Source: a virus (taxonomy: Duplodnaviria; Caudoviricetes). From it: a DNA stretch of 64,000 bases. Under the pieces are notes generated by a model. It was not told the origin of the DNA, made no database searches, and saw nothing but the letters and a program-made list of their open reading frames with translations. Shown here one piece after another: positions 3 to 24,913 of this stretch (positions within the stretch are counted from its first letter, which is position 1; the number at the start of each line of letters is the position of its first letter). Both the position numbers and the translations under genes were made by a program. The DNA is taken from the IMG/VR virus record IMGVR_UViG_3300032232_001064, positions 1 to 64,000 of that record; one strand, given 5' to 3'.

Positions 3-1205
3 GGTGTCACTGGCGTGCAGGGTGTTACCGGTGTGCAGGGTGTCACAGGACCCATAGGCGTGACAGGGCCTGTTGGTGCGACAGGGCCTGTTGGCGTTAC
101 CGGTGTTCAGGGTGTCACTGGTGTGCAGGGTGTCACCGGTGTTCAAGGCGTTACCGGACCTACCGGGCCAATTTACAGACCTGGATACACGTTCTCCGCA
201 ACTACCAACGATGCTGATCCAGGTGGCGGAGTCTTTAAATTCAATAACGGACTCATCGGATCAGTTACAAACATCTTCATAGACAATGTCGATACCGGAA
301 ACGTGACACAGACATCGTGGTACGACATCTGGGACGATTCGACGTCTGCACTCAAAGGCGTGTTGACGTTTTTTACTTCAAACGCAACGACCGGCACTAT
401 TCAGTGCACCTTTAGAGTCGCCGGCACGGTTACGGTTGCTGCCGGATATTACAAAATTCCAGTCGCATTTGTAAGTGGAACATTGCCGACTGACAACACA
501 GTCTATTACATCAACTTTGACTCAAATGGAGACGCCGGTACGCAGGGTGTGACCGGGGCGACAGGTCCACAAGGAGCTGTTGGTGCTACTGGCGCTGGAG
601 TGTCTGGTGCAGCCGGCGCGGTAGGTGCGACGGGGCCCGCAGGCGCAACGGGTCCTGCCGGTGCGACTGGTCCGCAAGGTGTCACTGGACCAGACGGAGT
701 TACAGGTGTCACTGGCCCAGCAGGCGTGCAGGGTGTTACAGGTGCGACCGGTCCGCAGGGCACTATAGGCGCGACTGGTCCGCAGGGCACTGTAGGCGCG
801 ACTGGTCCTATCGGTCCTCAGGGGACAACCGGCGTTACTGGGCCAGCTGCCGGTGGCTCAATCACTTTTTCCATCATTGGACAGCCCATTGTCGGCAACG
901 GACCGCGATGGTACGCTCCAGTTTCTGGAACCATTCAGAAAGTAGTGCTTTCAGCCGGCGTGGCACCTATCGGCGGAACAGTTACAGCCGACGTGTTCAT
1001 CGACGAGTTCGATGCCGGTGGTTCAATTTTCACACCAAGTCCAATTCCCACTCTTACGAGCGGAATGTACTCAACCCATCCCGGGGTCACTCCAACAATC
1101 ACCTCATTCGTGAGTGGTGATTACTTTACGGTGCGTGTTTTAGCATCGGCAGGAACGATTGTTGGAAGCGACATCACGGTAACTATCACATACCTCGGAG
1201 TCTAA
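3..1205 (+). CDS. Collagen-like (Gly-X-Y) virion fibre protein, 5'-truncated by the window edge
   Basis: Frame open from position 3. Two Gly-X-Y tracts (GVTGVQ repeats at the start; [11 protein letters not shown] at ~535-855) flank a globular domain, with a C-terminal beta-rich domain. Confidence 0.85.
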
Positions 1206-8844: not shown

Positions 8845-9351
8845 TTACGGGGCAAACCCGTCCTGATGCGGCCACACGTACTCGTAGGTTGCCGGCGCGG
8901 TGCCGCTGTCCTCGGCCCATCCGAACTGGCTGTACCAGTCGTAGTTTTTGCACAGCAACGCTGTCCGATGCGACGAACACAGCGTCTCGAAGTACGCTTT
9001 GTCAGTCATCCACGGCGGGAGAACCATTGCCGAGTCGATGCGGCCAAGCTGCACAGCAGTGTCGTAGGTATGCAAGATTTTTGGCAACATGGTCGACTTG
9101 TAGCCGCGCGACTTCCATTCGACGTACGTTGCTGCCATGTACGCGACAAACGCGGATTCGTAGCCTCGCCACATTCGAACGACAGGATGCGTCGTCCAGC
9201 CTTTTGGCGTCCGGTGATTTCCATCGGGATCTAGCTCGGTGATCGTCAGCAGACACTGCCACGCTTCGAGCGTTTGCTTGTGCAAGCGTTTGTTGTCGAG
9301 CACTGATGCTGTCTCGACAAACGAGTCGGTAGAGATGAGAAAAGACTGCAA
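8845..9351 (-). CDS. Pyrimidine-dimer DNA glycosylase/endonuclease V-like (MSMEG_6728-type) protein
   Basis: 'LDNKRLHKQTLEA.Q', 'HP...MWRGYE', 'SHRTALL.K..DWY' motifs; TTG start after AAGGAG. Confidence 0.8.
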   Translation of the reverse strand: MQSFLISTDSFVETASVLDNKRLHKQTLEAWQCLLTITELDPDGNHRTPKGWTTHPVVRMWRGYESAFVAYMAATYVEWKSRGYKSTMLPKILHTYDTAVQLGRIDSAMVLPPWMTDKAYFETLCSSHRTALLCKNYDWYSQFGWAEDSGTAPATYEYVWPHQDGFAP

Positions 9352-9391: not shown

Positions 9392-10639
9392 TTACTTAGT
9401 TTCAAAGTACGTTTTACGCACGAAGGATCGACTGAATCCTTTGTCCGTTTCAAGCAGGTACTCGCGATCGCCGATCAACTGTCCTTGTGGCCCGTTGGGT
9501 TGGCCGTCAAGTGCGGCAACAGTTGCCTCGCCGATCCACGTAGCGGCCTGCACAGCAACGGCCTTACCCCATGTCGCGCCGAGGGCGGAGTAGTTCTTTG
9601 CCTCGACAAATGACCAATCGTCAGGAAGTCCTTGAATTCTTGCAGCCTCACGATGCGTGATGCGGCGTGGTAGCGTCGGATGGACGATATGGTCCATGGC
9701 TCCACCGGTTAGCACGTGACAGAATGAATCAGCATCCCAGCGAACAGCTGTCGAGAATCCAAGATAGAAATCCTTTCTACGAACTTTCTCTTCTTGACTA
9801 AGCCATGACTGCGGGAACTTGTCGCCGTTCTTTTCGACAGCTTGCTTAAGCGCGCCGGCAAGATCGACCATCGGACCCCACCCGTCATTGCCGATGATCT
9901 CAAAGATCTCGTCAATTCGTCTGGTGTCCATGCTGATCTTGTTCATGTGGCCGTCGACGATACCCGTTTTAGTCCGAAGGCCGGCAACAAATGGACTAGG
10001 CTCTGACTGGCCATAGCTTTGCGGCTCCCACTGGACTTCGAGGTTCTCGAGGTCGCCGATGATGTCTCTCATTCGAGGAATCTCGGTGGGATTCGTCACT
10101 GATGCGCCAAACGGCATTCCTTGCTCGACAGCTACCCAAAAATAGCGCATCCGGTATGAGAATCCACCGACCTGCAGGTTGTTGTGCTTTACGTGGTACA
10201 GGTCATACTTCTTACCTGACAGTTCTTCAAGCATGTTGCGATATTGAAGCATCACGGCGCGACCTTGCGTATACGCCTGCTGCACACACTCGAACACTAC
10301 GATCTTTGGCTTTACGCGAGCTGCGTAGCGCATGAATGCGCGCGTGTGCTCGTGCGCAGCCGAGTCAGGTCCGCGCTTATCAGCGCCTGACCACACAGAC
10401 CAGCCAGAACATGGTGGACATCCGATGACAGCGTCTACGTTTGCTGTGGGCCAGTCGTTCGGATCGTCACCAAACGCGGCACTCCAGTTGTCGCCCAGAT
10501 GATGTCTGTTCAACTCGGCGACAGGGTTGCCAAAGTTCAATGTCCCAGTGCGGAGCTGCATCTCCATGCCGGACTTGACAAAGCCAAGACTCATGAACGC
10601 AGCTAGTCCATTGCAGTCGATAAATGTGTGATCGCTCAT
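9392..10639 (-). CDS. DNA cytosine-C5 methyltransferase homolog with degenerate SAM-binding motifs
   Basis: Motif IV GCPPCSG, VI FECVQ, VIII SYRMRYFW, IX ITHREAARIQGLPDDW and X WGKAV present; motif I is DCNGLAAF rather than DxFxGxGG. Start moved to ATG 10639 (GGAG upstream; aligns with MTase N-terminus). Confidence 0.85.
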   Translation of the reverse strand: MSDHTFIDCNGLAAFMSLGFVKSGMEMQLRTGTLNFGNPVAELNRHHLGDNWSAAFGDDPNDWPTANVDAVIGCPPCSGWSVWSGADKRGPDSAAHEHTRAFMRYAARVKPKIVVFECVQQAYTQGRAVMLQYRNMLEELSGKKYDLYHVKHNNLQVGGFSYRMRYFWVAVEQGMPFGASVTNPTEIPRMRDIIGDLENLEVQWEPQSYGQSEPSPFVAGLRTKTGIVDGHMNKISMDTRRIDEIFEIIGNDGWGPMVDLAGALKQAVEKNGDKFPQSWLSQEEKVRRKDFYLGFSTAVRWDADSFCHVLTGGAMDHIVHPTLPRRITHREAARIQGLPDDWSFVEAKNYSALGATWGKAVAVQAATWIGEATVAALDGQPNGPQGQLIGDREYLLETDKGFSRSFVRKTYFETK

Positions 10640-10697: not shown

Positions 10698-11009
10698 TTA
10701 CATGAGCAGGCTGTTTTCCTTGATACCGACCTCGTAGCCGCACGCGGCGTATCCCGCAATGTCTGTCCAAGTGTCTGGCTGGAATCCAGCGCCCGCGGCG
10801 TATCTAGCCATCTTCACTCCGACCATCGCCATCGCAACATCTTCACGTGAAAACTTGCGATCGAATAGCACTGTCCAGATCCTGGCGATCTTTTCGAAGT
10901 TGTCCTCTGGCCCGCCGTACTGCTCATCACGTTGGCCAGAGATGATACGTGCAACTTCGAGTAGCATTTCCTCACGCGCACTTTTCTTGCTGACGGCTGG
11001 CTTTGTCAT
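10698..11009 (-). CDS. DUF6378-like all-alpha (NTP-pyrophosphatase-like) protein
   Basis: 'R.EQYG.PEDNF..IA..W...DVAM.M..VKMAR...DTW.DIAGYAA' pattern. Confidence 0.75.
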   Translation of the reverse strand: MTKPAVSKKSAREEMLLEVARIISGQRDEQYGGPEDNFEKIARIWTVLFDRKFSREDVAMAMVGVKMARYAAGAGFQPDTWTDIAGYAACGYEVGIKENSLLM

Positions 11010-11442: not shown

Positions 11443-11684
11443 AGTTCTGCTACTTTCTTTTCAAGCCGGTACGGAGCATGTCGCGCACCGGATACGTAGG
11501 GAAGTCTTAGGTCAATTGTCGTGACGTGTACATCGCCGTCTTTTACGTCGATCACTCGGACAAGCCGCCCGTTGTGTATCTTTCCGGCCGCGGTTTTATA
11601 AGCATCGAACTTTACGCGGAGAACGTCACCGGTTTTAAGGTCACTGGCCGAAACATCAGCCCACAAGGAGTTCACAGCGCTCAT
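11439..11684 (-). CDS. Hypothetical SH3/Tudor-like small protein
   Basis: 'LKTGDVLRV...GRLVRVIDVKDGDVHV'; start at ATGA overlap with the upstream gene. Confidence 0.55.
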   Translation of the reverse strand: MSAVNSLWADVSASDLKTGDVLRVKFDAYKTAAGKIHNGRLVRVIDVKDGDVHVTTIDLRLPYVSGARHAPYRLEKKVAEL

Positions 11685-12154
11685 CGCTGAGGACACTGCA
11701 CTTCAGTGCACGCTGACGTGTCATAGTCGTCGAGAGCCCGAGCGCACTGTGCGCACTTCATTCCTGTATCAAGAACTCGGTATCCCTTTTTCTGTCGATC
11801 AGCGTTGAGCTGCATCTTGTTCAAGTATGCGAGGTCAAGTTCGTCGTCTGTTGCGCCAGCTGCGCACAGAATGTTCGCGACAAAGTGCAGAACATCGACG
11901 CATTCTTTGAGGATTTCACGACGATCGGCGTACGGGTCGTCGTGCTGCCACGGCTTCCAAGAAATTGCCTTACGCACCTCGGCAAGTTCGTCGTCAATGG
12001 CAAGCATGTTCCAACGAATATACTCGATGAGTGCGCGAAGATTTTCTGGTTCGTCGCTGTGAAAGACTGTGTAATCGACTCCGTAGGCTGTTTGCTGCAA
12101 CTTTCGCGTAGCGTCTAGCCACTTGTGAAACAGGTAGTTGTTTGTCTCGCTCAA
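11681..12154 (-). CDS. Dimeric dUTPase/dCTPase-like (MazG superfamily) pyrophosphatase with C-terminal Cys cluster
   Basis: 'DELAE.....WKPW.....EILKECVDVLHF.AN' motif; 'N..RQ..GY' end; C-terminal CxxC..C..C. Confidence 0.8.
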   Translation of the reverse strand: MSETNNYLFHKWLDATRKLQQTAYGVDYTVFHSDEPENLRALIEYIRWNMLAIDDELAEVRKAISWKPWQHDDPYADRREILKECVDVLHFVANILCAAGATDDELDLAYLNKMQLNADRQKKGYRVLDTGMKCAQCARALDDYDTSACTEVQCPQR

Positions 12155-15171: not shown

Positions 15172-16409
15172 GAGAACGCACTCTCGATCATCACCTCAGC
15201 GGTCTTTCGAGGATCGTTTCTTGTGCGAAGAACTTCGCGGTTGTGCTGCGCGATTGCGATGTGGTCAGCTTCTGGGATTTCAAGGCATGTCTGAAATGCG
15301 TCAGCGCACTTCTTGATTACCTCTATTCCTTCGTCTTTTACAAGACGACCCTGCGTCGGGGAACCTTTATACCAGTCGAGCACCATCATACGGAACTGAG
15401 AATCTGAAAGGTGGCCGGGCACGATACAGAGTGCGCCGGCATCTGCGGCCTCAAGCGTCGAGTATTCGACAAGCCCGCGCGCGAAATTGTGCGCGGTCAA
15501 ATTCATGTGAACGCGGAACCGCTGAGCGATCTTTGACGAATCAACATAGTTCCCGAGGTACCGAACAAGCGCGTGACCTTCGACACGCGCATCCCACGGA
15601 TACGGCGTGATGATATTGCCGTCGGTTCGTTCAGTCTCTGTATCGAGATTCTTGTGATAACGAAGCACCTTCGCGCCAAAGTGTTCTCTAAGAAGTTCAT
15701 AGACGATGAACGTCGGCGACGGGCCAAGTCCGACAGAGCATGATCCCCAGACCTCAACGGTGACGTCTGGGTCTAGGAACACGCCGGTCATAGCGACAAC
15801 AGGCTGCCCCTTGTTGTAGATAAACCGGCCTGACGTGCCAACGATCTTTTCGCGCTGGACCGGGGCGTCGATCTCGAACTTCGGGATATAGGGCATAGGA
15901 CCCTTAATCCAATCGACAGCCTTGAAAATGTCATTGCTATAGAGCGCAGAATCTTCGCTCATCGTGACAAGCTTGGTCCCACGCGATGGCGACTCAAGAA
16001 GCTTCGCAACGAACGGCACATCTTTGTCCGGGTAGAACGAACCGTGCAGCGACGTTGTCCACGGGGTCTTGGTCCGTAGGAGCGCGTCGACGTACTCAGG
16101 CAACGCGCCGCCACCTGCCTTTATCGCGGTCTTGTCGTGAAGCGGGATCTTAATTTCTGGAAGTACAACCATGTCATAGGTGTCAAGGCATTGAACAATG
16201 TCGACTGTTTTGACTGTGACGTCGGGAGCTTCACTCCACCACCGTCCACCAGGCTGTGGCTTTCCCCACGACGAACGCGCACGACCACTCTTCGTGTACG
16301 ACACGACATCTGCTTCGTGACCAAGTGCCTTGAATCCGTAACGCAGACGAAACGCCCACGCCGTCGGTCCCTTTACTCCAGGCTCTGGCTCAAGAATAGC
16401 GACTTTCAT
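15168..16409 (-). CDS. GT-B glycosyltransferase resembling T4 alpha-glucosyltransferase
   Basis: N-terminal 'GPT.WA..LR..F...GHEADVV' and C-terminal 'VEYSTLEAADAGALC', matching by eye T4 AGT 'G.T.F......GHEV' and 'LEY..LE..ACG'. Confidence 0.7.
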   Translation of the reverse strand: MKVAILEPEPGVKGPTAWAFRLRYGFKALGHEADVVSYTKSGRARSSWGKPQPGGRWWSEAPDVTVKTVDIVQCLDTYDMVVLPEIKIPLHDKTAIKAGGGALPEYVDALLRTKTPWTTSLHGSFYPDKDVPFVAKLLESPSRGTKLVTMSEDSALYSNDIFKAVDWIKGPMPYIPKFEIDAPVQREKIVGTSGRFIYNKGQPVVAMTGVFLDPDVTVEVWGSCSVGLGPSPTFIVYELLREHFGAKVLRYHKNLDTETERTDGNIITPYPWDARVEGHALVRYLGNYVDSSKIAQRFRVHMNLTAHNFARGLVEYSTLEAADAGALCIVPGHLSDSQFRMMVLDWYKGSPTQGRLVKDEGIEVIKKCADAFQTCLEIPEADHIAIAQHNREVLRTRNDPRKTAEVMIESAFS

Positions 16410-16444
16410 TCCATCTCCAAAACGTCTTTATCTCTTCAGTGTGT

Positions 16445-16453
16445 AAGCTATCA
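16445..16453 (-). promoter_or_regulatory. Extended -10 promoter candidate (TGATAGCTT)
   Basis: TGnTAnnnT upstream of the AGT-like gene, downstream of a hairpin. Confidence 0.35.
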
Positions 16454-16491
16454 CGGATTGATTGGCGAATCATGCAAAGCTCGCCAAAATG

Positions 16492-16539
16492 CAACGTGGA
16501 GGGCGTACTCGTTTGCACGAGCAGAGGCCCTCCACGTTG
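16492..16539 (-). terminator. Hairpin/terminator after the SSB-like gene
   Basis: 13-bp inverted repeat caacgtggagggc/gccctccacgttg with inner ctcgt-GCAA-acgag stem-loop (minus strand), followed by CATTTT. Confidence 0.6.
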
Positions 16540-16555
16540 ACTGGGTGTTCTTGGC

Positions 16556-17134
16556 TCAGAACGGAGCGCTGGGCGGAGTGTCGCCTGCAGCCGCCGGCTG
16601 CTCGGCAACTGCCTCAACGACAGGTGCAGGGGCCGGTGCAGGGGCCGGTGCGGGTGCCGGTGCAGGGGCCGGTGCGGGTGCCGGTGCAGGCGCAGGAGCG
16701 GGTGCCGCTGCAGCCACAGTGCCGGCTGCCGTTGTGGCGTAGTACGCCTTGACCTCGTTCTTCTTCTGTCCCTGCCACACACGGCTGCCGACCTGTGCGC
16801 GGAACGAGCGTCCCTTGAGCGCCTGCTCGATCTGAGCGTTGGTCGGGTTGGTCGAGAAGAATTCACGACCCAGGCCGAGTGCGCCCATCTTGCGGAAGAA
16901 AATGCCGAGCGCGTTGGGGTTGTCGGTCGAGACGACCAGGTTGTCCCACACGAGGCGCTTGGCGTGCGCGCCGGTGAGGACCTGCGCCTTGATGGCGAAC
17001 ATCGTCTTGCCGGTCTGTGTCTGCTTGGCGGTTGCCTCCATGATTGTGAGGTCGTAGTCGCCGTCGGGCAGCGGATCATAGCTGCCGACGTCGCCTGCGT
17101 CCTTGATGAGGTCGCCCCAGTTGAGTGTGCTCAT
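16556..17134 (-). CDS. DUF669-like ssDNA-binding protein
   Basis: 'YDPLPDGDY.L.I..A','R.VWDNL', OB-fold-like core, (Ala-Pro)n linker, C-terminal ...DTPPSAPF tail. Confidence 0.75.
   Translation of the reverse strand: MSTLNWGDLIKDAGDVGSYDPLPDGDYDLTIMEATAKQTQTGKTMFAIKAQVLTGAHAKRLVWDNLVVSTDNPNALGIFFRKMGALGLGREFFSTNPTNAQIEQALKGRSFRAQVGSRVWQGQKKNEVKAYYATTAAGTVAAAAPAPAPAPAPAPAPAPAPAPAPAPAPAPVVEAVAEQPAAAGDTPPSAPF
16622..16706 (-). repeat. (Ala-Pro) dipeptide tandem repeat, about 14 copies
   Basis: GCN-CCN hexamer array. Confidence 0.9.
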
Positions 17135-17158
17135 TGGAATGTGTCTTTCTCTTGTTGC

Positions 17159-17929
17159 TTACTTGGACTTTGCTGTGGACGTGGGCGCCGCTGCGCGGGG
17201 CCCGAAGACGATGTCGAGCATGTTTTCGACACCGAGATTTTGCTGCTCTACGATCTTACCGAGCCTGCCTTGAACGCGCTCACCGGCTTCATACTGCGCA
17301 GTGCGCTCGACGTACATGCGTCGTGCCTTGTACGGCGGTTGCGTCGGGTCCTGGCTCGGAAATTCCTCGACGGACAGAGCGCCAAGGATATCATAGAAGT
17401 AGGGCGCCTGGATCGCAAGCTGTCCCTGAAGATACGGACGATACCGACCGTCCTGGCCTTGACGCGCCATGGCTGTTAGCACGACTGCCTCGAGCGGGTT
17501 GACAGGGTGCATCGTGAGGTCACGAAGATCGCGAAGAAGAGCACCCATGTGACGAAGAAGTTCGCCCCACTGCTGCATCTGCATCTGATTCTTGCCGGCG
17601 ATGTTGTCAACGCACTTGACCTGAAGCTCTGACACTGAGTCGATGATCAACGACTTGAACTGATGCTTGCCCAGCTGCAGCCACTGGTACGCCTTGAGCA
17701 CCGTGTCATACTGCGTGACGTTCACGACGCAAGTGTCCCAGGTGCCGTCAGCGACGGGCGGTTCCTCGCGAAGCGGGTCCCAGTACTTGACGTTGATCGG
17801 CAAGAACCGGTGTCCACCTTCCACGTCGAGCATCAGCCGAGGATACGGAGCTGTGACCGCAAATGTCGACTTACCGACCTTGGATTCACCGTAGACCATG
17901 ATGGTCAACGATCTCTGTACTTCTGCCAT
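17159..17929 (-). CDS. Sak4/AAA_24-like P-loop ATPase (recombination)
   Basis: Walker A 'YGESKVGKST', 'LDVEGG', Walker B 'LIIDS'. Confidence 0.8.
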   Translation of the reverse strand: MAEVQRSLTIMVYGESKVGKSTFAVTAPYPRLMLDVEGGHRFLPINVKYWDPLREEPPVADGTWDTCVVNVTQYDTVLKAYQWLQLGKHQFKSLIIDSVSELQVKCVDNIAGKNQMQMQQWGELLRHMGALLRDLRDLTMHPVNPLEAVVLTAMARQGQDGRYRPYLQGQLAIQAPYFYDILGALSVEEFPSQDPTQPPYKARRMYVERTAQYEAGERVQGRLGKIVEQQNLGVENMLDIVFGPRAAAPTSTAKSK

Positions 17930-21556: not shown

Positions 21557-23379
21557 CAGTATTTGTCTCCCCACGTCTCAAGCGGACCGTCGACGTCAGC
21601 AGTTAGCGGCACAGCCCAACCTTCACGCGTTGTCATGCATTCACGAACAACTTGCATGATCTCGCGGGCGTCCTTGCGCGGCGCCTGTAGCACGATTTCG
21701 TCGTGCACTGGAACGATCAGCATCTCAGTCAGATCTGCTTGGTCGAGCTTTACGAGGTTCGCCTTGAAAACCTCCGCGGCACCACCTTGAATGAGATAGT
21801 TGACAAGCGTGTACACGCGACCTTCGTCGCAAGGAAGTCGCCGACCTGTCCAAGTATAGACGTAGCCTTGGCCTTCCTCGCGAACACGACGCATCCCAAT
21901 GTCTTCAATCTGTCGCTGGAAGTACGCCATTCCAGGGAATCGACGATCAAACTCGTCTGACGTGTGCTTCATTGCGGATTCGTGGACGCCGGCGGTAAGC
22001 GCCTGTTTCGCAACGCCGGCACCGTAAAGACGGCCATAGATCATGCTCTTGATAAGGCCACGGCGCTTATCGGATTTCTGCATGTCTGGCTCGCTGTACA
22101 CTTCACGGCCGATCTCGGTGAACGGATCAGAGCCGGTGCTATCTGCGACGTTGAACAGCGAGATCAGGTTTTCGTCGTTAGAGAGACTCGCAAACATTCT
22201 GAACTCGACCTGGTCAAGGTCAGAGGTGATGATGACGTGATCGTCGTCCTTCGGAATGAAGGCACGACGAACCGTTGCGTCACCCTTTGGCAGTGTTTGA
22301 AGCGCCGGGTTCGTAATCGACATGCGACTTGTTCGAGCGCCGAGCGTCTTTACAGACGGATGCACAAAGCCGTCAACAGATTCAGTCAAGAAGTTGCTGA
22401 AGTACGTGTTCGCAAGCTTGTCAGCCTTGCGCTGCTTAAGAACAGTGTCGGCAAGTGTCTTGACTTCGTCGTTGCCGTCGCGAAGAAGAATCTTCAGCTG
22501 ATCTTTAGTGCATGACTTTTGCCCAGTCGGCGTTGTTTCCGTAATCTCTGCACCAAGGCGCTCGAAAAGCCGAACGAGCTGGACGTTGCTCGTGATCGAC
22601 ACACCTTCATACTTTTGCTTGGCCCACGTCTTTACGCTATTAGTGTATGCGCTCAGCTCATCATACTTCTGGCGTGAGTAGCCAAGGTCAACGCGTGCGC
22701 CGTTGATTTCCATGCGTGTGACGATTCGCCGCGCGGCCATTTCCAGCTCGTACGGACGGCTATACGCGCCGCTAGGGCCGCACTTGTCCCAGAACATTTC
22801 CCACAGTCTGGTCGTCAGCACGCAGTCGAGAGCGCCATATGACCAGTACGGTTGAAAGTTTGTCGGAACTGTTCCCCACGTCCAACCGTTCTTTACGAGC
22901 TCGGTATCGAGCGTCTCTTGAAGAGCCACAGCGCGACTATCGACGTGCAACGCCGCAAGACGCTTTAGCGCGCCGGAACCAAGAGGATCTACGACATGCG
23001 CCATGATCATTGTGTCATGCGCTCTATGCCACGGAATATCCCACCGAGACTGGACATCGAACCATCGCGCCTCAAAGGCGATGTTGTGGCAGATCAACGG
23101 ACCATCGAACTTGTTCATGGCCTCATAGAACACACCTGACCATTCGTCCCACGGAATCGACCAGCCCTGCTCACCGTCACCGACTTGCACAAGTCGAAGC
23201 CGGCCGTGCCATGGAGAAAACGCATGGTCTCGAGGGTTGCCGGGCAGTTCTCCGGTTTCAGTGTCGACAGCCAGCGCGTTGTGCGGCCGTCTTTGCCCAA
23301 TCCAGTGGATGAACTCCGCAGCCTTTTCGACATTGTCGACCAGATGAAGCTGGACGTTGGAAAGATCAGTCGTTGTCAT
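21556..23379 (-). CDS. polA: Family A DNA polymerase (3'-5' exonuclease + polymerase, no 5'-3' exo)
   Basis: Exo 'AVDTETG', 'HNIAFE', 'Y..LD'; motif A 'SDLDQVEFR', motif B 'RGLIKSMIYG', motif C 'VHDEI'. Start moved to ATG 23379. Confidence 0.95.
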   Translation of the reverse strand: MTTTDLSNVQLHLVDNVEKAAEFIHWIGQRRPHNALAVDTETGELPGNPRDHAFSPWHGRLRLVQVGDGEQGWSIPWDEWSGVFYEAMNKFDGPLICHNIAFEARWFDVQSRWDIPWHRAHDTMIMAHVVDPLGSGALKRLAALHVDSRAVALQETLDTELVKNGWTWGTVPTNFQPYWSYGALDCVLTTRLWEMFWDKCGPSGAYSRPYELEMAARRIVTRMEINGARVDLGYSRQKYDELSAYTNSVKTWAKQKYEGVSITSNVQLVRLFERLGAEITETTPTGQKSCTKDQLKILLRDGNDEVKTLADTVLKQRKADKLANTYFSNFLTESVDGFVHPSVKTLGARTSRMSITNPALQTLPKGDATVRRAFIPKDDDHVIITSDLDQVEFRMFASLSNDENLISLFNVADSTGSDPFTEIGREVYSEPDMQKSDKRRGLIKSMIYGRLYGAGVAKQALTAGVHESAMKHTSDEFDRRFPGMAYFQRQIEDIGMRRVREEGQGYVYTWTGRRLPCDEGRVYTLVNYLIQGGAAEVFKANLVKLDQADLTEMLIVPVHDEIVLQAPRKDAREIMQVVRECMTTREGWAVPLTADVDGPLETWGDKY

Positions 23380-23875
23380 TGTTGTCGTCCCTATCCCAGA
23401 AAATAGTGTAGTCGATGCCAGTCTCTTTGAGATACGCAAACACTAGTTCAGGTCGTCTATGAGCGTCATTCTCACTCGCGCGGCAGACGACACGGCGTAT
23501 TCCAGAGTTGCTGATGAGCTTGGCGCACTGCATGCAAGGAACGCCAGTGACGTACAACGTACCACCATCGATGCTCGATCGGTCGACATACAGCAAAGCG
23601 TTCGCCTCCGCGTGGATGGCGGGGCACAGGTCATACGTGTTGTCGAGTGTCCCCTCGCCTCTCGCTCGAGGGCACCACCCAGAACACATGCCGTCGTGAG
23701 GCCACGAAGCAGCAGGCCCGTTGTAGCCTGTTGCTGCGATCCGCTGGTTTCCTGAAACGATGACGGCGCCGATTCGGGCGCGAGAGCAGCGTGACTTTTT
23801 TGCTACGACGTCAGCTACAGCTATCCAGGTATCGTCCCACGAAGGAATGTCATCATTCGTCGTCTTCTGTGTCAT
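23366..23875 (-). CDS. dCMP deaminase (ComEB/DCD type)
   Basis: 'C.R..IGAVIV...TGYNG', 'HAEANA', 'PCMQCAK.I'. Confidence 0.9.
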   Translation of the reverse strand: MTQKTTNDDIPSWDDTWIAVADVVAKKSRCSRARIGAVIVSGNQRIAATGYNGPAASWPHDGMCSGWCPRARGEGTLDNTYDLCPAIHAEANALLYVDRSSIDGGTLYVTGVPCMQCAKLISNSGIRRVVCRASENDAHRRPELVFAYLKETGIDYTIFWDRDDNNDND

Positions 23876-24053
23876 ATTGTTCCTCGTCCGACACCTCGTT
23901 CATTCCCATGACGAGCATTCTCGCTACGAGTTCCAGGGCGTCTCTTCGTGTAAATCCGGCTCGGCGCAGTGTCACATACATCTCATGCATGCTGATTGCC
24001 GCCTCTTCCATCGGCGATGCGTACTCGTAATCGTCATCGCCGTTGTTGCTCAT
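23853..24053 (-). CDS. Hypothetical protein (66 aa)
   Basis: 'HE.Y..L..AGFTR..AL.L' small phage helical protein. Confidence 0.65.
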   Translation of the reverse strand: MSNNGDDDYEYASPMEEAAISMHEMYVTLRRAGFTRRDALELVARMLVMGMNEVSDEEQYDTEDDE

Positions 24054-24913
24054 GTCGCGTTCTTTTGACTGTTCTTATAGAACGCAGAGATCATCGAATC
24101 TGCGTACCAAGCTTCGGCATTGCCAAGAGACTCGTACGCTCTTTGCGAGTAGACAGCTGCAAGTGCGGTCTGCGCCATAGTCTTAATATTATCCCACGAT
24201 GAACCAACGATCGGTGGAGGCGGTGACACAATCTCAGTCTTTTGAAGCTGCGTCGCCGCTTCGAAATTCGTCTCGTAGATGTGAAGCGAACCGACGTGGT
24301 GAGCATACTGACCAGGCTCAATCCCGAGGACACTGGCCATTGCGATCTGCACTCGCGTGAACTGAAAGAAATCATACGCGGCGCCAAGCCACACGTCGTT
24401 CGACCGCATGTACACGCTCATGTTGAGCTTTCCATTGCGTATCCGAAACTGATGCATGACGGTGCACGGGTAGTCTCGCTTATGCGGAGTGTTGTCCTTA
24501 GACGGATCCCAAAGCGTGACGACCGCCTGCCGCGAATCAGTGTCATTTTTGAGCTTTTCGATCACAGCTTCATACTGTCCGCTGGTTCGCGTACCGTACG
24601 ACCCGTGAAACTTGCCGTCTTCTTCTGCGTAGTTCTTAAACTGCGGACCGATCGCGATCACGGTTTCCGGTACCGCAACTCCGCCGAGAAGTTGGCACGC
24701 TTCGACGGCACCAATGCCTGCGACCGGGTTGCGCTTGACGCCGACGGGCAATGTCGCAAAGACGTTGTCGATGTAGACAACCGCGTCTTCAATCTCAAGA
24801 GTGCCGAGCCCTCGAGGAGCTACTCGGTCGCCGTAGATAAGGACATGGTTGACAAGATCAACATAGCCGTTGACGCCGTCTTCGATTTCAATGGACTTTA
24901 TGGAAGCTCCCAA
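24050..24913 (-). CDS. Thymidylate-synthase-fold enzyme with Asp specificity residue (probable dCMP hydroxymethylase/methylase)
   Basis: 'DSRQAV', catalytic 'PCT', 'MRSNDVWLGAAYDFFQF', 'SLHIY'. Confidence 0.85.
   Translation of the reverse strand: MGASIKSIEIEDGVNGYVDLVNHVLIYGDRVAPRGLGTLEIEDAVVYIDNVFATLPVGVKRNPVAGIGAVEACQLLGGVAVPETVIAIGPQFKNYAEEDGKFHGSYGTRTSGQYEAVIEKLKNDTDSRQAVVTLWDPSKDNTPHKRDYPCTVMHQFRIRNGKLNMSVYMRSNDVWLGAAYDFFQFTRVQIAMASVLGIEPGQYAHHVGSLHIYETNFEAATQLQKTEIVSPPPPIVGSSWDNIKTMAQTALAAVYSQRAYESLGNAEAWYADSMISAFYKNSQKNAT

Follow-up and report, generated by a model that had tools for sequence, protein, structure and literature searches.

A phage protein with the DNA cytosine-C5 methyltransferase fold and altered, conserved cofactor motifs lies among T4-type hydroxymethylcytosine genes in actinophages

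The gene, its fold and its motifs

The first 64,000 nucleotides of the IMG/VR virus record IMGVR_UViG_3300032232_001064 (Duplodnaviria; Caudoviricetes) form the window, that is, the whole stretch of DNA analysed here. On its minus strand lies a gene for a 415-residue protein related to the DNA cytosine-C5 methyltransferases (C5-MTases), which are among the best-understood DNA-modifying enzymes, and our subject is this MTase-like gene, the alteration of its cofactor motifs and its association with genes for the synthesis of hydroxymethylcytosine (hmC; as the base, 5hmC). A preliminary description of the locus had proposed that the protein keeps catalysis and has lost the binding of S-adenosylmethionine (SAM). 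The ATG of the open reading frame (ORF) is preceded, 7-8 nt upstream, by GGAG, and the start Met is common to 108 of 121 homologues. Pfam PF00145 matches the protein at 76.5 bits (cut-off 22) over profile positions 56-321 only; in relatives that retain the ribose-binding Glu of motif II (Glu-bearing relatives), the alignment begins at about profile position 8. The NCBIfam dcm model gives 39 bits, below its cut-off of 100.65.

An AlphaFold (AF2) model built from 130 homologues reaches a predicted local distance difference test (pLDDT) score of 96.5. Residues 1-380 of the model superpose on DNMT1, ZMET2, CP-933R 3G7U, M.HaeIII, M.HhaI, M.MpeI and CmoX with Z 21-31, the matches to DNMT1, HaeIII and HhaI falling at Z 26-30. 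Over these residues the two-domain C5-MTase fold is complete (Z 29.0 to HaeIII and 26.6 to HhaI): the N-terminal Rossmann half is present, diverged in sequence and not truncated. Residues ~381-415 (window 9392-9499) form a conserved extension, a hairpin and a helix, that has no counterpart in HhaI, HaeIII, MpeI or CmoX, and within which Glu393 is near-invariant across the whole family.

Residue equivalences (Table 1) derive from the family profile aligned to M.HaeIII from the first residue, and alignment counts refer to the best 120 of the 306 relatives found at E up to 1e-5 in a large protein set. The losses that the preliminary description had reported in motifs I, II and X are all borne out. 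Motif I, canonically F-x-G-x-G-G, reads N10, G11, L12, A13, A14, F15 and is invariant in 114 of 121 close homologues with the exception of position 14, which is Gly in 96 of the 121 and Ala in a minority that includes the 415-residue protein. At the end of beta2 the Glu of motif II has become Gly32, and R30, T31 and G32 are invariant or nearly so within the subfamily. In motif X, G358-K359 stands where canonical enzymes have G-N, Lys359 aligning with N304 of HhaI, R350 of CmoX and N374 of M.MpeI. The base-activating residues are intact, as had also been described: Cys77 is present in 116 of 119 family representatives and Arg163 in 117 of 119, Arg165 is invariant and Glu117 is kept. Ser78 in motif IV occupies the position of HhaI Q82, and the Asn of the motif VI E-N-V is Cys118 here and Ser in most family members. 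A target-recognition region typical of DNA enzymes is also present.

Cys74, His96, His98 and Cys118 make up a quartet specific to the subfamily, Glu-bearing relatives having Asn, Asn, Cys and Ser at these positions. Its residues vary together in P0122 and in phage DSL-LC01, and to some extent in P0253; the quartet may bind a metal or form a hydrogen-bonded cluster next to the catalytic loop.

Table 1. The MTase-like gene, its motifs and other features of the window
Feature	Position in window	Strand	Basis
C5-MTase-fold gene, 415 aa (P0001)	9392..10639	-	ORF; PF00145 3e-21; AF2 model
Motif I, residues 6-17, with Asn10 for Phe and Leu12, Ala14 and Phe15 for the first, second and third Gly	10589..10624	-	HaeIII profile alignment
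Beta2 end, R-T-G-T, residues 30-33, Gly32 replacing ribose-binding Glu of motif II	10541..10552	-	Profile alignment; model
Motif IV, GCPPCSGWS, residues 73-81, catalytic Cys77	10397..10423	-	Invariant in 121/121
Motif VI, E-C-V, residues 116-120, Glu117 kept	10280..10294	-	Profile alignment
Motif VIII, residues 161-167, Arg163 and Arg165	10139..10159	-	Family alignment
Motif IX, residues 325-342, DNA C5-MTase type	9614..9667	-	Profile alignment
Motif X, residues 357-361, G358-K359 replacing G-N	9557..9571	-	Profile alignment
H-E-H-T, residues 96-99, subfamily-specific	10343..10354	-	Alignment; Glu-bearing group has N-x-C-M
Quartet sites H96 and H98, C74, C118	10343-10354, 10418-10420, 10286-10288	-	Alignment
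MazG-like all-alpha pyrophosphatase, gp56-like, invariant upstream partner	11681..12154	-	PF08761 1.4e-11
DUF6378 protein, directly upstream of MTase-like gene	10698..11009	-	PF19905 3.8e-24
Thymidylate-synthase homologue, 5hmdCMP-synthase signature	24050..24913	-	Diagnostic residues; T4 gp42 match
dCMP deaminase	23366..23875	-	PF00383 3.7e-20
Sugar cassette: GT-B-like 336 aa, nucleotidyltransferase, HAD, APH-fold kinase, GT-B 413 aa	12151..16409	-	Pfam; AF2
Pyr_excise pyrimidine-dimer DNA glycosylase, T4 endonuclease V-type, directly downstream	8845..9351	-	PF03013 1.9e-14
Collagen-repeat protein	15-1205	+	PF01391, 6e-22
Open frame >4195 aa	51412-63999	-	

Purifying selection on the altered motifs

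Could the unusual motifs be a product of decay? The best 120 relatives, at 61-100% identity and mostly on metagenomic phage contigs of up to ~150 kb, keep the altered motifs. In 40 orthologous full-length subfamily genes from IMG/VR the reading frame is unbroken in every case, and the median ratio of non-synonymous to synonymous substitution rates (dN/dS) is 0.049 (49 pairs, 80-97% nucleotide identity). Codons 1-60, which hold the altered motifs I to III, give 0.012, the lowest value of any part of the gene. The gene encodes an intact enzyme-fold protein under strong purifying selection. That it is a decaying pseudogene, an idea for which the unusual motifs themselves are the sole argument, is refuted by the intact frames, the low dN/dS and the invariance of the altered motifs, and is practically out of the question; motifs invariant in 120 homologues of 60-82% identity, taken with the dN/dS, likewise exclude their origin by chance. 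The preliminary description had allowed that homologues might reveal pseudogenisation under relaxed selection, and both the alignment and the selection analysis point the other way.

A phage clade with recurrent changes to the pocket

An exhaustive profile-free search yielded 143 clusters (50% identity) with E below 1e-30. Nearly all carry equivalents of Cys77, Glu117, Arg163, Arg165 and Lys359, and typically they have Ser at the Q82 position and E-S-V in motif VI; in motif I, Gln, Asn or His together with Phe or Leu occupy the positions of the usual Phe and the first Gly. The motif changes noted in the preliminary description are therefore real but for the most part not specific to this gene: loss of the Phe, replacement of the first Gly by Leu or Phe, Q82 to Ser and Asn to Lys are clade-wide, the G-K of motif X and the Ser at HhaI Q82 being common to the entire clade. 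What is lineage-specific is the loss of the beta2 Glu, which is kept in 74 of 119 representatives (as K-R-E, with G-G in motif I) and lost in 45.

In a midpoint-rooted tree the Glu-bearing forms are paraphyletic and the Glu-less forms fall into at least three clades: this gene groups with those of DSL-LC01 and of Gordonia phage Sixama (support 0.999), another R-T-G clade has support 1.0, and a large clade of the H-R-V-S type has support 0.956. Several other changes co-vary with the absence of the Glu: K30 becomes R, F12 becomes L, N74 becomes T, V or C, G360 becomes N, C, Q or A, and position 361 becomes C. When alignment columns are ranked by mutual information, 13 of the top 22 belong to motifs I, II, IV and X (hypergeometric p 4e-7, uncorrected for phylogeny). 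Because the loss recurs and co-varies with columns of the pocket, it suggests coordinated and repeated remodelling of the pocket.

Where is the clade found? Queries drawn from each of the three groups and run against 50,697 deposited phage genomes matched 15 clear records, namely DSL-LC01, 13 Gordonia phage records and Micrococcus phage Kurnik, and one query gave a weak partial match to an unannotated faecal phage contig. The motif IV peptide was also sought in 185,579 species genomes of bacteria and archaea, by a scan with a DNA pattern that covers part of the family only and that also gave chance matches in other frames; this returned one true member, on a contig of a Coriobacteriia metagenome-assembled genome (MAG). 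The clade is found almost only in phages and is essentially viral, and because the scan returned that one true member there is no sign of restriction-modification pairing. Our search of the literature found no published description of the clade.

Fusions provide further information. Ten of the longer family members end in a class I methyltransferase domain, of either the Methyltransf_23/UbiG-like or the FkbM kind. In a Glu-bearing member the fused Methyltransf_23 domain shares 46% identity (E 3e-69) with a protein encoded separately, next to the MTase-like gene, in one Glu-less clade (locus L098), which makes a Rosetta-stone link to the MTase-like gene. One member of the H-R-V-S type (P0244, on a 5.6-kb Logan contig) is fused to a 5-hydroxymethyldeoxyuridine (5-hmdU) DNA kinase domain (PF18723, 5e-40), which suggests that phosphorylation of a 5-hydroxymethylpyrimidine may be coupled to Cys-mediated chemistry; the contigs of P0244 and P0175 are too short for gene context. 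Kinase, O-methyltransferase and glycosyltransferase, the partners of the family, are all hydroxyl-acting enzyme types. Longer fused forms were also sought in a set of 5.8 billion proteins, with one uninformative match.

A metagenomic relative (P0212) contains an intein, with Hint, LAGLIDADG and splicing domains, that interrupts it near residue 79, at the catalytic P-P-C-S. Inteins usually occupy essential, highly conserved sites.

Gene order and the hydroxymethylcytosine module

The MTase-like gene is a fixed core part of an actinophage replication module that also includes T4-type hmC genes. The gene order common to 80 IMG/VR loci, three annotated phages and the window runs PolA, a small protein, SNF2 helicase, PD-(D/E)XK nuclease, RecA-like ATPase, another small protein, a variable cassette, the MazG-like pyrophosphatase, a few small ORFs including that for the DUF6378 protein, and the MTase-like gene; in the close subfamily only, the Pyr_excise glycosylase and then WhiB follow. 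The MazG-like protein, predicted to act as a dCTPase, is 27% identical (E 1e-11) to T4 gp56, and its gene is found beside the MTase-like gene in 59 loci; the DUF6378 gene holds its position in 44.

In DSL-LC01 the place of DUF6378 is taken by a gene for a 170-residue protein annotated as a class I SAM-dependent methyltransferase (locus L001, 11428-11940). This protein gave no match to NCBIfam models and is not similar to the Methyltransf_23 partner. In locus L098, from one of the Glu-less clades, a Methyltransf_23 gene stands between the MazG-like and MTase-like genes. T4 gene 56, for dCTPase, directly adjoins dam (L155, T4 16270-17625), an arrangement that resembles this neighbourhood and may be coincidence.

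Upstream of PolA sit the genes for dCMP deaminase and a thymidylate synthase (TS) homologue. The closest solved relative of the latter is the CMP hydroxymethylase MilA, and it matches T4 gp42 with E 3e-13. At the diagnostic positions it has D147 (E. coli L143), C150, D173 (D169 kept) and D181 (N177). Asp at N177, an acidic residue at L143 and a retained Asp169 mark a 5-hydroxymethyl-dCMP (5hmdCMP) synthase, as against a TS or a 5-hydroxy-dCMP (5hodCMP) synthase (PMC13326640), and the retained Asp169 led us to reject the 5hodCMP synthase identity. Of 14 genomes with a family member, 13 also have the TS homologue, the exception being an 80% complete genome, and the three-residue signature was read in 11 of the 13. 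Gene content of this kind suggests that the phage DNA probably carries 5hmC in place of C. A route of the TET/JBP type, in which a methyltransferase, a dioxygenase acting on 5-methylcytosine (5mC) and a glycosyltransferase (GT) would act together, was considered and rejected, since neither this record nor any of three complete relatives matches PF12851. We found nothing on DNA modification in publications on GMA2, DSL-LC01 and DUF6378.

The cassette between the RecA-like and gp56-like genes is hypervariable among otherwise syntenic phages (loci L008-L087). It may consist of GT-B-like pairs, of the kinase, HAD and nucleotidyltransferase trio seen in the window, of an epimerase with a nucleotidyltransferase and a STELLO-like GT, or of nothing, and in L098 the Methyltransf_23 gene just downstream of the gp56-like gene is found instead. 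Such a pattern resembles the outcome of diversifying selection on whatever group is joined to the DNA base. The AF2 model of the 413-residue protein has a GT-B fold with the T4 alpha-glucosyltransferase (AGT) among its tied best matches (E ~1e-9; template modelling score 0.53-0.60), and language-model features of the GT-like proteins of the window point to the clusters of AGT and of the beta-glucosyltransferase (BGT). Homology of the two GT-like proteins to T4 AGT or BGT was also sought at the level of sequence and not found: there is no PF11440 match, and hhalign against AGT and BGT gave no signal. Because these hidden Markov model and hhalign comparisons were negative, the DNA specificity of the GT-B enzymes is a lead only.

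On the other side of the MTase-like gene, the Pyr_excise gene adjoins it in 41 loci, all within the freshwater close subfamily. The preliminary description had spoken of a uracil-DNA glycosylase (UDG)-like domain, which we could not find: PF03167 has no match in the 72.9-kb record, and the neighbour is the Pyr_excise glycosylase.

Elsewhere in the window are a collagen-repeat protein, collagen-like genes being found in the same region of DSL-LC01, and a giant open frame that runs off the window edge. The only annotation of the corresponding giant gene in DSL-LC01 is a spurious name.

Comparison with known systems

With canonical C5-MTases (M.HaeIII, M.HhaI, 3G7U and DNMT1) the protein shares the fold, the Pro-Cys, the motif VI Glu, the Arg-x-Arg, motif IX and the target-recognition region. 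It differs from them in that the motif I Phe and two or three of the Gly, the motif II Glu, the motif IV Gln, the Asn of E-N-V and the Asn of motif X have all been replaced, and in its additional C-terminal element, its almost phage-only distribution and its lack of pairing with restriction enzymes. Judged by model and alignment, it is a structural member of the C5-MTase superfamily that lacks the SAM-motif features by which methyltransferase function is defined.

C5-MTases are capable of atypical, SAM-independent reactions, in which aldehydes are added or removed at C5 and thiols or selenols are coupled to 5hmC, by the same Cys-C6 and methylene chemistry that we propose below. Liutkeviciute et al., in 2009 and 2011, are said to have found that in vitro, when SAM is absent, C5-MTases attach formaldehyde to C5 or take it off again and join nucleophiles to 5hmC. 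These are test-tube side reactions of SAM-dependent enzymes, and we know of no natural enzyme dedicated to them. The hmC pathway of T4 (gp56, gp42, cd and the alpha- and beta-glucosyltransferases) is paralleled here by the gp56-like and gp42-like proteins, the dCMP deaminase and the GT-B enzymes; the gp42-like protein has the diagnostic residues of gp42 itself, and T4 differs in having no C5-MTase homologue.

SpCmoX of Synechococcus phage S-B43 (PDB 8YF3) is a DNA cytosine C5-carboxymethyltransferase dependent on carboxy-SAM (Cx-SAM); its Arg350, at the HhaI N304 position, contacts the carboxymethyl group of Cx-SAM, and in M.MpeI a Lys at that position (N374K) converts the enzyme to a carboxymethyltransferase (PMC12783734). 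The criteria used to find CmoX genes were S-P-P-C and an Arg at the N304 position, and the 5615 genes found were accompanied by 4257 CmoA genes (PMC12783734). Like SpCmoX, which serves to install a handle for hypermodification, the protein studied here is a C5-MTase homologue from a phage, has P-P-C and is basic at the N304 position. It departs from the CmoX criteria in having C-P-P-C and Lys359 in place of the Arg, and its context is one of hmC and sugar genes, as against CmoA and a ligase in the CmoX system. Of the adenosine contacts of CmoX (Phe25, Glu47, Phe48 and Asp69), Phe25 corresponds to Asn10 and Glu47 to Gly32, the Glu being kept in relatives of group A. By sequence and by structure the protein is no closer to SpCmoX than to other C5-MTases. 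CmoA (TIGR00740) was sought at E up to 1 and found neither in this record, which is 50% complete, nor in three complete relatives, and the fused class I domains resemble UbiG or FkbM, on which grounds we rejected a CmoA/CmoX system; Cx-SAM could be supplied by the host.

A system that works in a comparable way, by analogy, is that of 5-HMUDK and the clade 2 aGPT-Pplase, in which thiolate attack on C6 exchanges the leaving group on the 5-methylene (PMC8989533). One member of our family is fused to a 5-hmdU DNA kinase domain, as mentioned above. The aGPT-Pplase differs in its helix-hairpin-helix fold and in its base, 5hmU, and a 5-hmdU kinase was not found in this phage.

A possible role in hydroxymethylcytosine chemistry

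HhaI Q82 and N304 clash with transferable groups bigger than methyl (PMC10666283). The Ser78 and Lys359 of the present protein therefore indicate a larger oxygen-bearing or anionic group beside C5. We prefer to place this group on the substrate or product base because the phage DNA is probably without free C5-H, and because the adenosine contacts are gone, there is no CmoA and the partner enzymes act on hydroxyls. More generally, since the rebuilt pocket is conserved and is accompanied by hmC genes, chemistry other than plain methylation is probable, and the altered pocket motifs fall in the most constrained region of the gene.

The reading that we favour, tentatively and with less than even confidence, is non-SAM chemistry tied to the hmC pathway and carried out on a DNA C5-MTase fold. 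The enzyme would most likely act after replication on the phage's own DNA, working on a C5 substituent and not forming 5mC. Covalent activation of the pyrimidine would be kept, with Cys77 adding to C6, Glu117 protonating N3 and Arg163 and Arg165 holding O2. One form of this chemistry, an exchange at 5hmC that we consider possible if rather doubtful, would begin with attack of Cys77 on C6 of 5hmC. Lys359 and Ser78, whose positions flank the transferred group in ordinary enzymes, would deal with the oxygen, or with an anionic leaving group, at the 5-methylene carbon. The exocyclic methylene that then forms would react with a nucleophile bound in what was once the SAM pocket. Alternatively, residual unmodified C might be patched to 5hmC in a forward reaction with a one-carbon donor other than SAM, a variant to which we give little weight.

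These proposals agree with the preliminary description in part. Its reading of the protein as a repurposed cytosine-flipping enzyme is a fair one, given the catalytic residues, the remodelled but conserved pocket and the selection acting upon it. The data show the fold, the residues, the selection, the synteny and the fusions; substrate, co-substrate and product are what we infer. The loss of SAM binding that it proposed, deduced from the motifs, is plausible, SAM, if bound, being bound non-canonically by a co-substrate side that appears rebuilt. Action on 5hmC in phage DNA, the first of its two options, is a sensible candidate because the genome has a gp42-like TS homologue, a gp56-like dCTPase, a dCMP deaminase and GT-B enzymes. 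The protein might even be the first natural, dedicated SAM-independent enzyme of the C5-MTase fold, exchanging or installing a C5 substituent on 5hmC through a Cys-C6 adduct and an exocyclic methylene, although we would call so specific a claim somewhat unlikely.

Several observations weigh against non-SAM chemistry. About 63% of the family, syntenic orthologues included, keep the beta2 Glu and the G-G of motif I, and this argues for a nucleoside-type cofactor, at least ancestrally. The Lys at the N304 position is, by analogy with CmoX, exactly what a user of carboxy-SAM would be expected to have. No gene was identified for the supply of a nucleophile or of an alternative one-carbon donor. The kinase fusion is a single case on a short contig, and no 5-hmdU DNA kinase was found in the genomes of this subgroup. 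Most of the co-occurrence with the TS homologue comes from a single phage lineage and is therefore phylogenetically non-independent, and the presence of 5hmC in virion DNA is itself deduced from gene content.

Alternative explanations

The clade-wide change of Asn to Lys matches that in CmoX and M.MpeI in both position and type, and because of this a SAM analogue is a serious alternative. The protein would then be a Lys-type alkyltransferase that moves a bulky anionic group from a SAM-derived donor (carboxy-SAM or similar) to C5 of unmodified C, the adenosine pocket having been remodelled in this subgroup. Lys359 lies at the CmoX Arg350 position and mirrors the N374K change of M.MpeI (PMC12783734), the second gate residue, Q82, is replaced by Ser78, the ribose-binding Glu is kept in most of the family, including syntenic orthologues, and a carboxyl group could be esterified by the class I methyltransferase that is fused or encoded nearby. 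Nothing in the protein corresponds to CmoX Phe25 and Glu47, however, and it shows no special closeness to SpCmoX; CmoA was not found in the four phage genomes, an amide ligase is absent nearby, and phage DNA would offer no free C5 if C is fully replaced by 5hmC. On balance we regard a SAM analogue as unlikely. We think it improbable that the protein is, along the lines of the second option in the preliminary description, a weapon against host DNA that engages only unmodified C and brings about host DNA breakdown by C-to-U deamination or a covalent stall. A C5-MTase active site does distinguish C from 5-substituted C, and the phage probably has hmC DNA; SAM inhibits the deamination of C by C5-MTases, and the bulky Leu12 and Phe15 could exclude it. 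The glycosylase adjacent in 41 loci belongs to the T4 endonuclease V family, members of which have apurinic/apyrimidinic (AP)-lyase activity, but this neighbour is absent in the Gordonia and Micrococcus phages and in more distant loci and is equally explained by UV repair, and UDG was not found in the 72.9-kb record. The strong constraint on a polar pocket and the fusions to kinase and O-methyltransferase domains fit biosynthesis better.

Might the protein simply be an ordinary SAM-dependent 5mC methyltransferase with drifted motifs, shielding residual C sites from restriction? PF00145 is above threshold, the database label is methyltransferase, motif I varies among C5-MTases, and T4 too has a DNA methyltransferase gene (dam) beside its dCTPase gene. 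Yet eight canonical cofactor-contact positions have been altered and then frozen, and in CmoX and M.MpeI the use of SAM is lost or much reduced when the N304 position is Arg or Lys (PMC12783734), which leaves ordinary methylation decidedly improbable. Still less probable, to the point of being very unlikely, is a role outside DNA catalysis, either as a base-flipping module that presents 5hmC DNA to its partners or as an RNA-directed enzyme: fusion to other catalytic domains and the rebuilt pocket would suit such a role, but Cys77, Glu117 and Arg163/165 are near-invariant over the ~143 clusters, and motif IX and a target-recognition region of DNA-enzyme type are present.

Significance

The SAM-free side reactions of C5-MTases have so far been laboratory curiosities, used for epigenome labelling. 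A large clade that keeps the catalytic residues, rebuilds the cofactor side and travels with hmC synthesis points to an unrecognised step in phage DNA hypermodification, and there is a fair chance that it performs new chemistry. Relatives in culture, namely Gordonia phages Sixama, GMA2, Forza and GodonK as well as Micrococcus phage Kurnik, make a direct test feasible, and the clade could provide a new sequence-directed tool for derivatising C or 5hmC. Should non-SAM chemistry at 5hmC prove correct, the enzyme would be the cytosine counterpart of the aGPT-Pplase step in thymidine hypermodification, and actinophage DNA would contain a cytosine modification not yet described in it. The analysis also marks a freshwater and soil actinophage group as probable hmC-DNA phages, and hmC DNA in actinophages bears on restriction, on CRISPR targeting and on biases in the sequencing of viromes.

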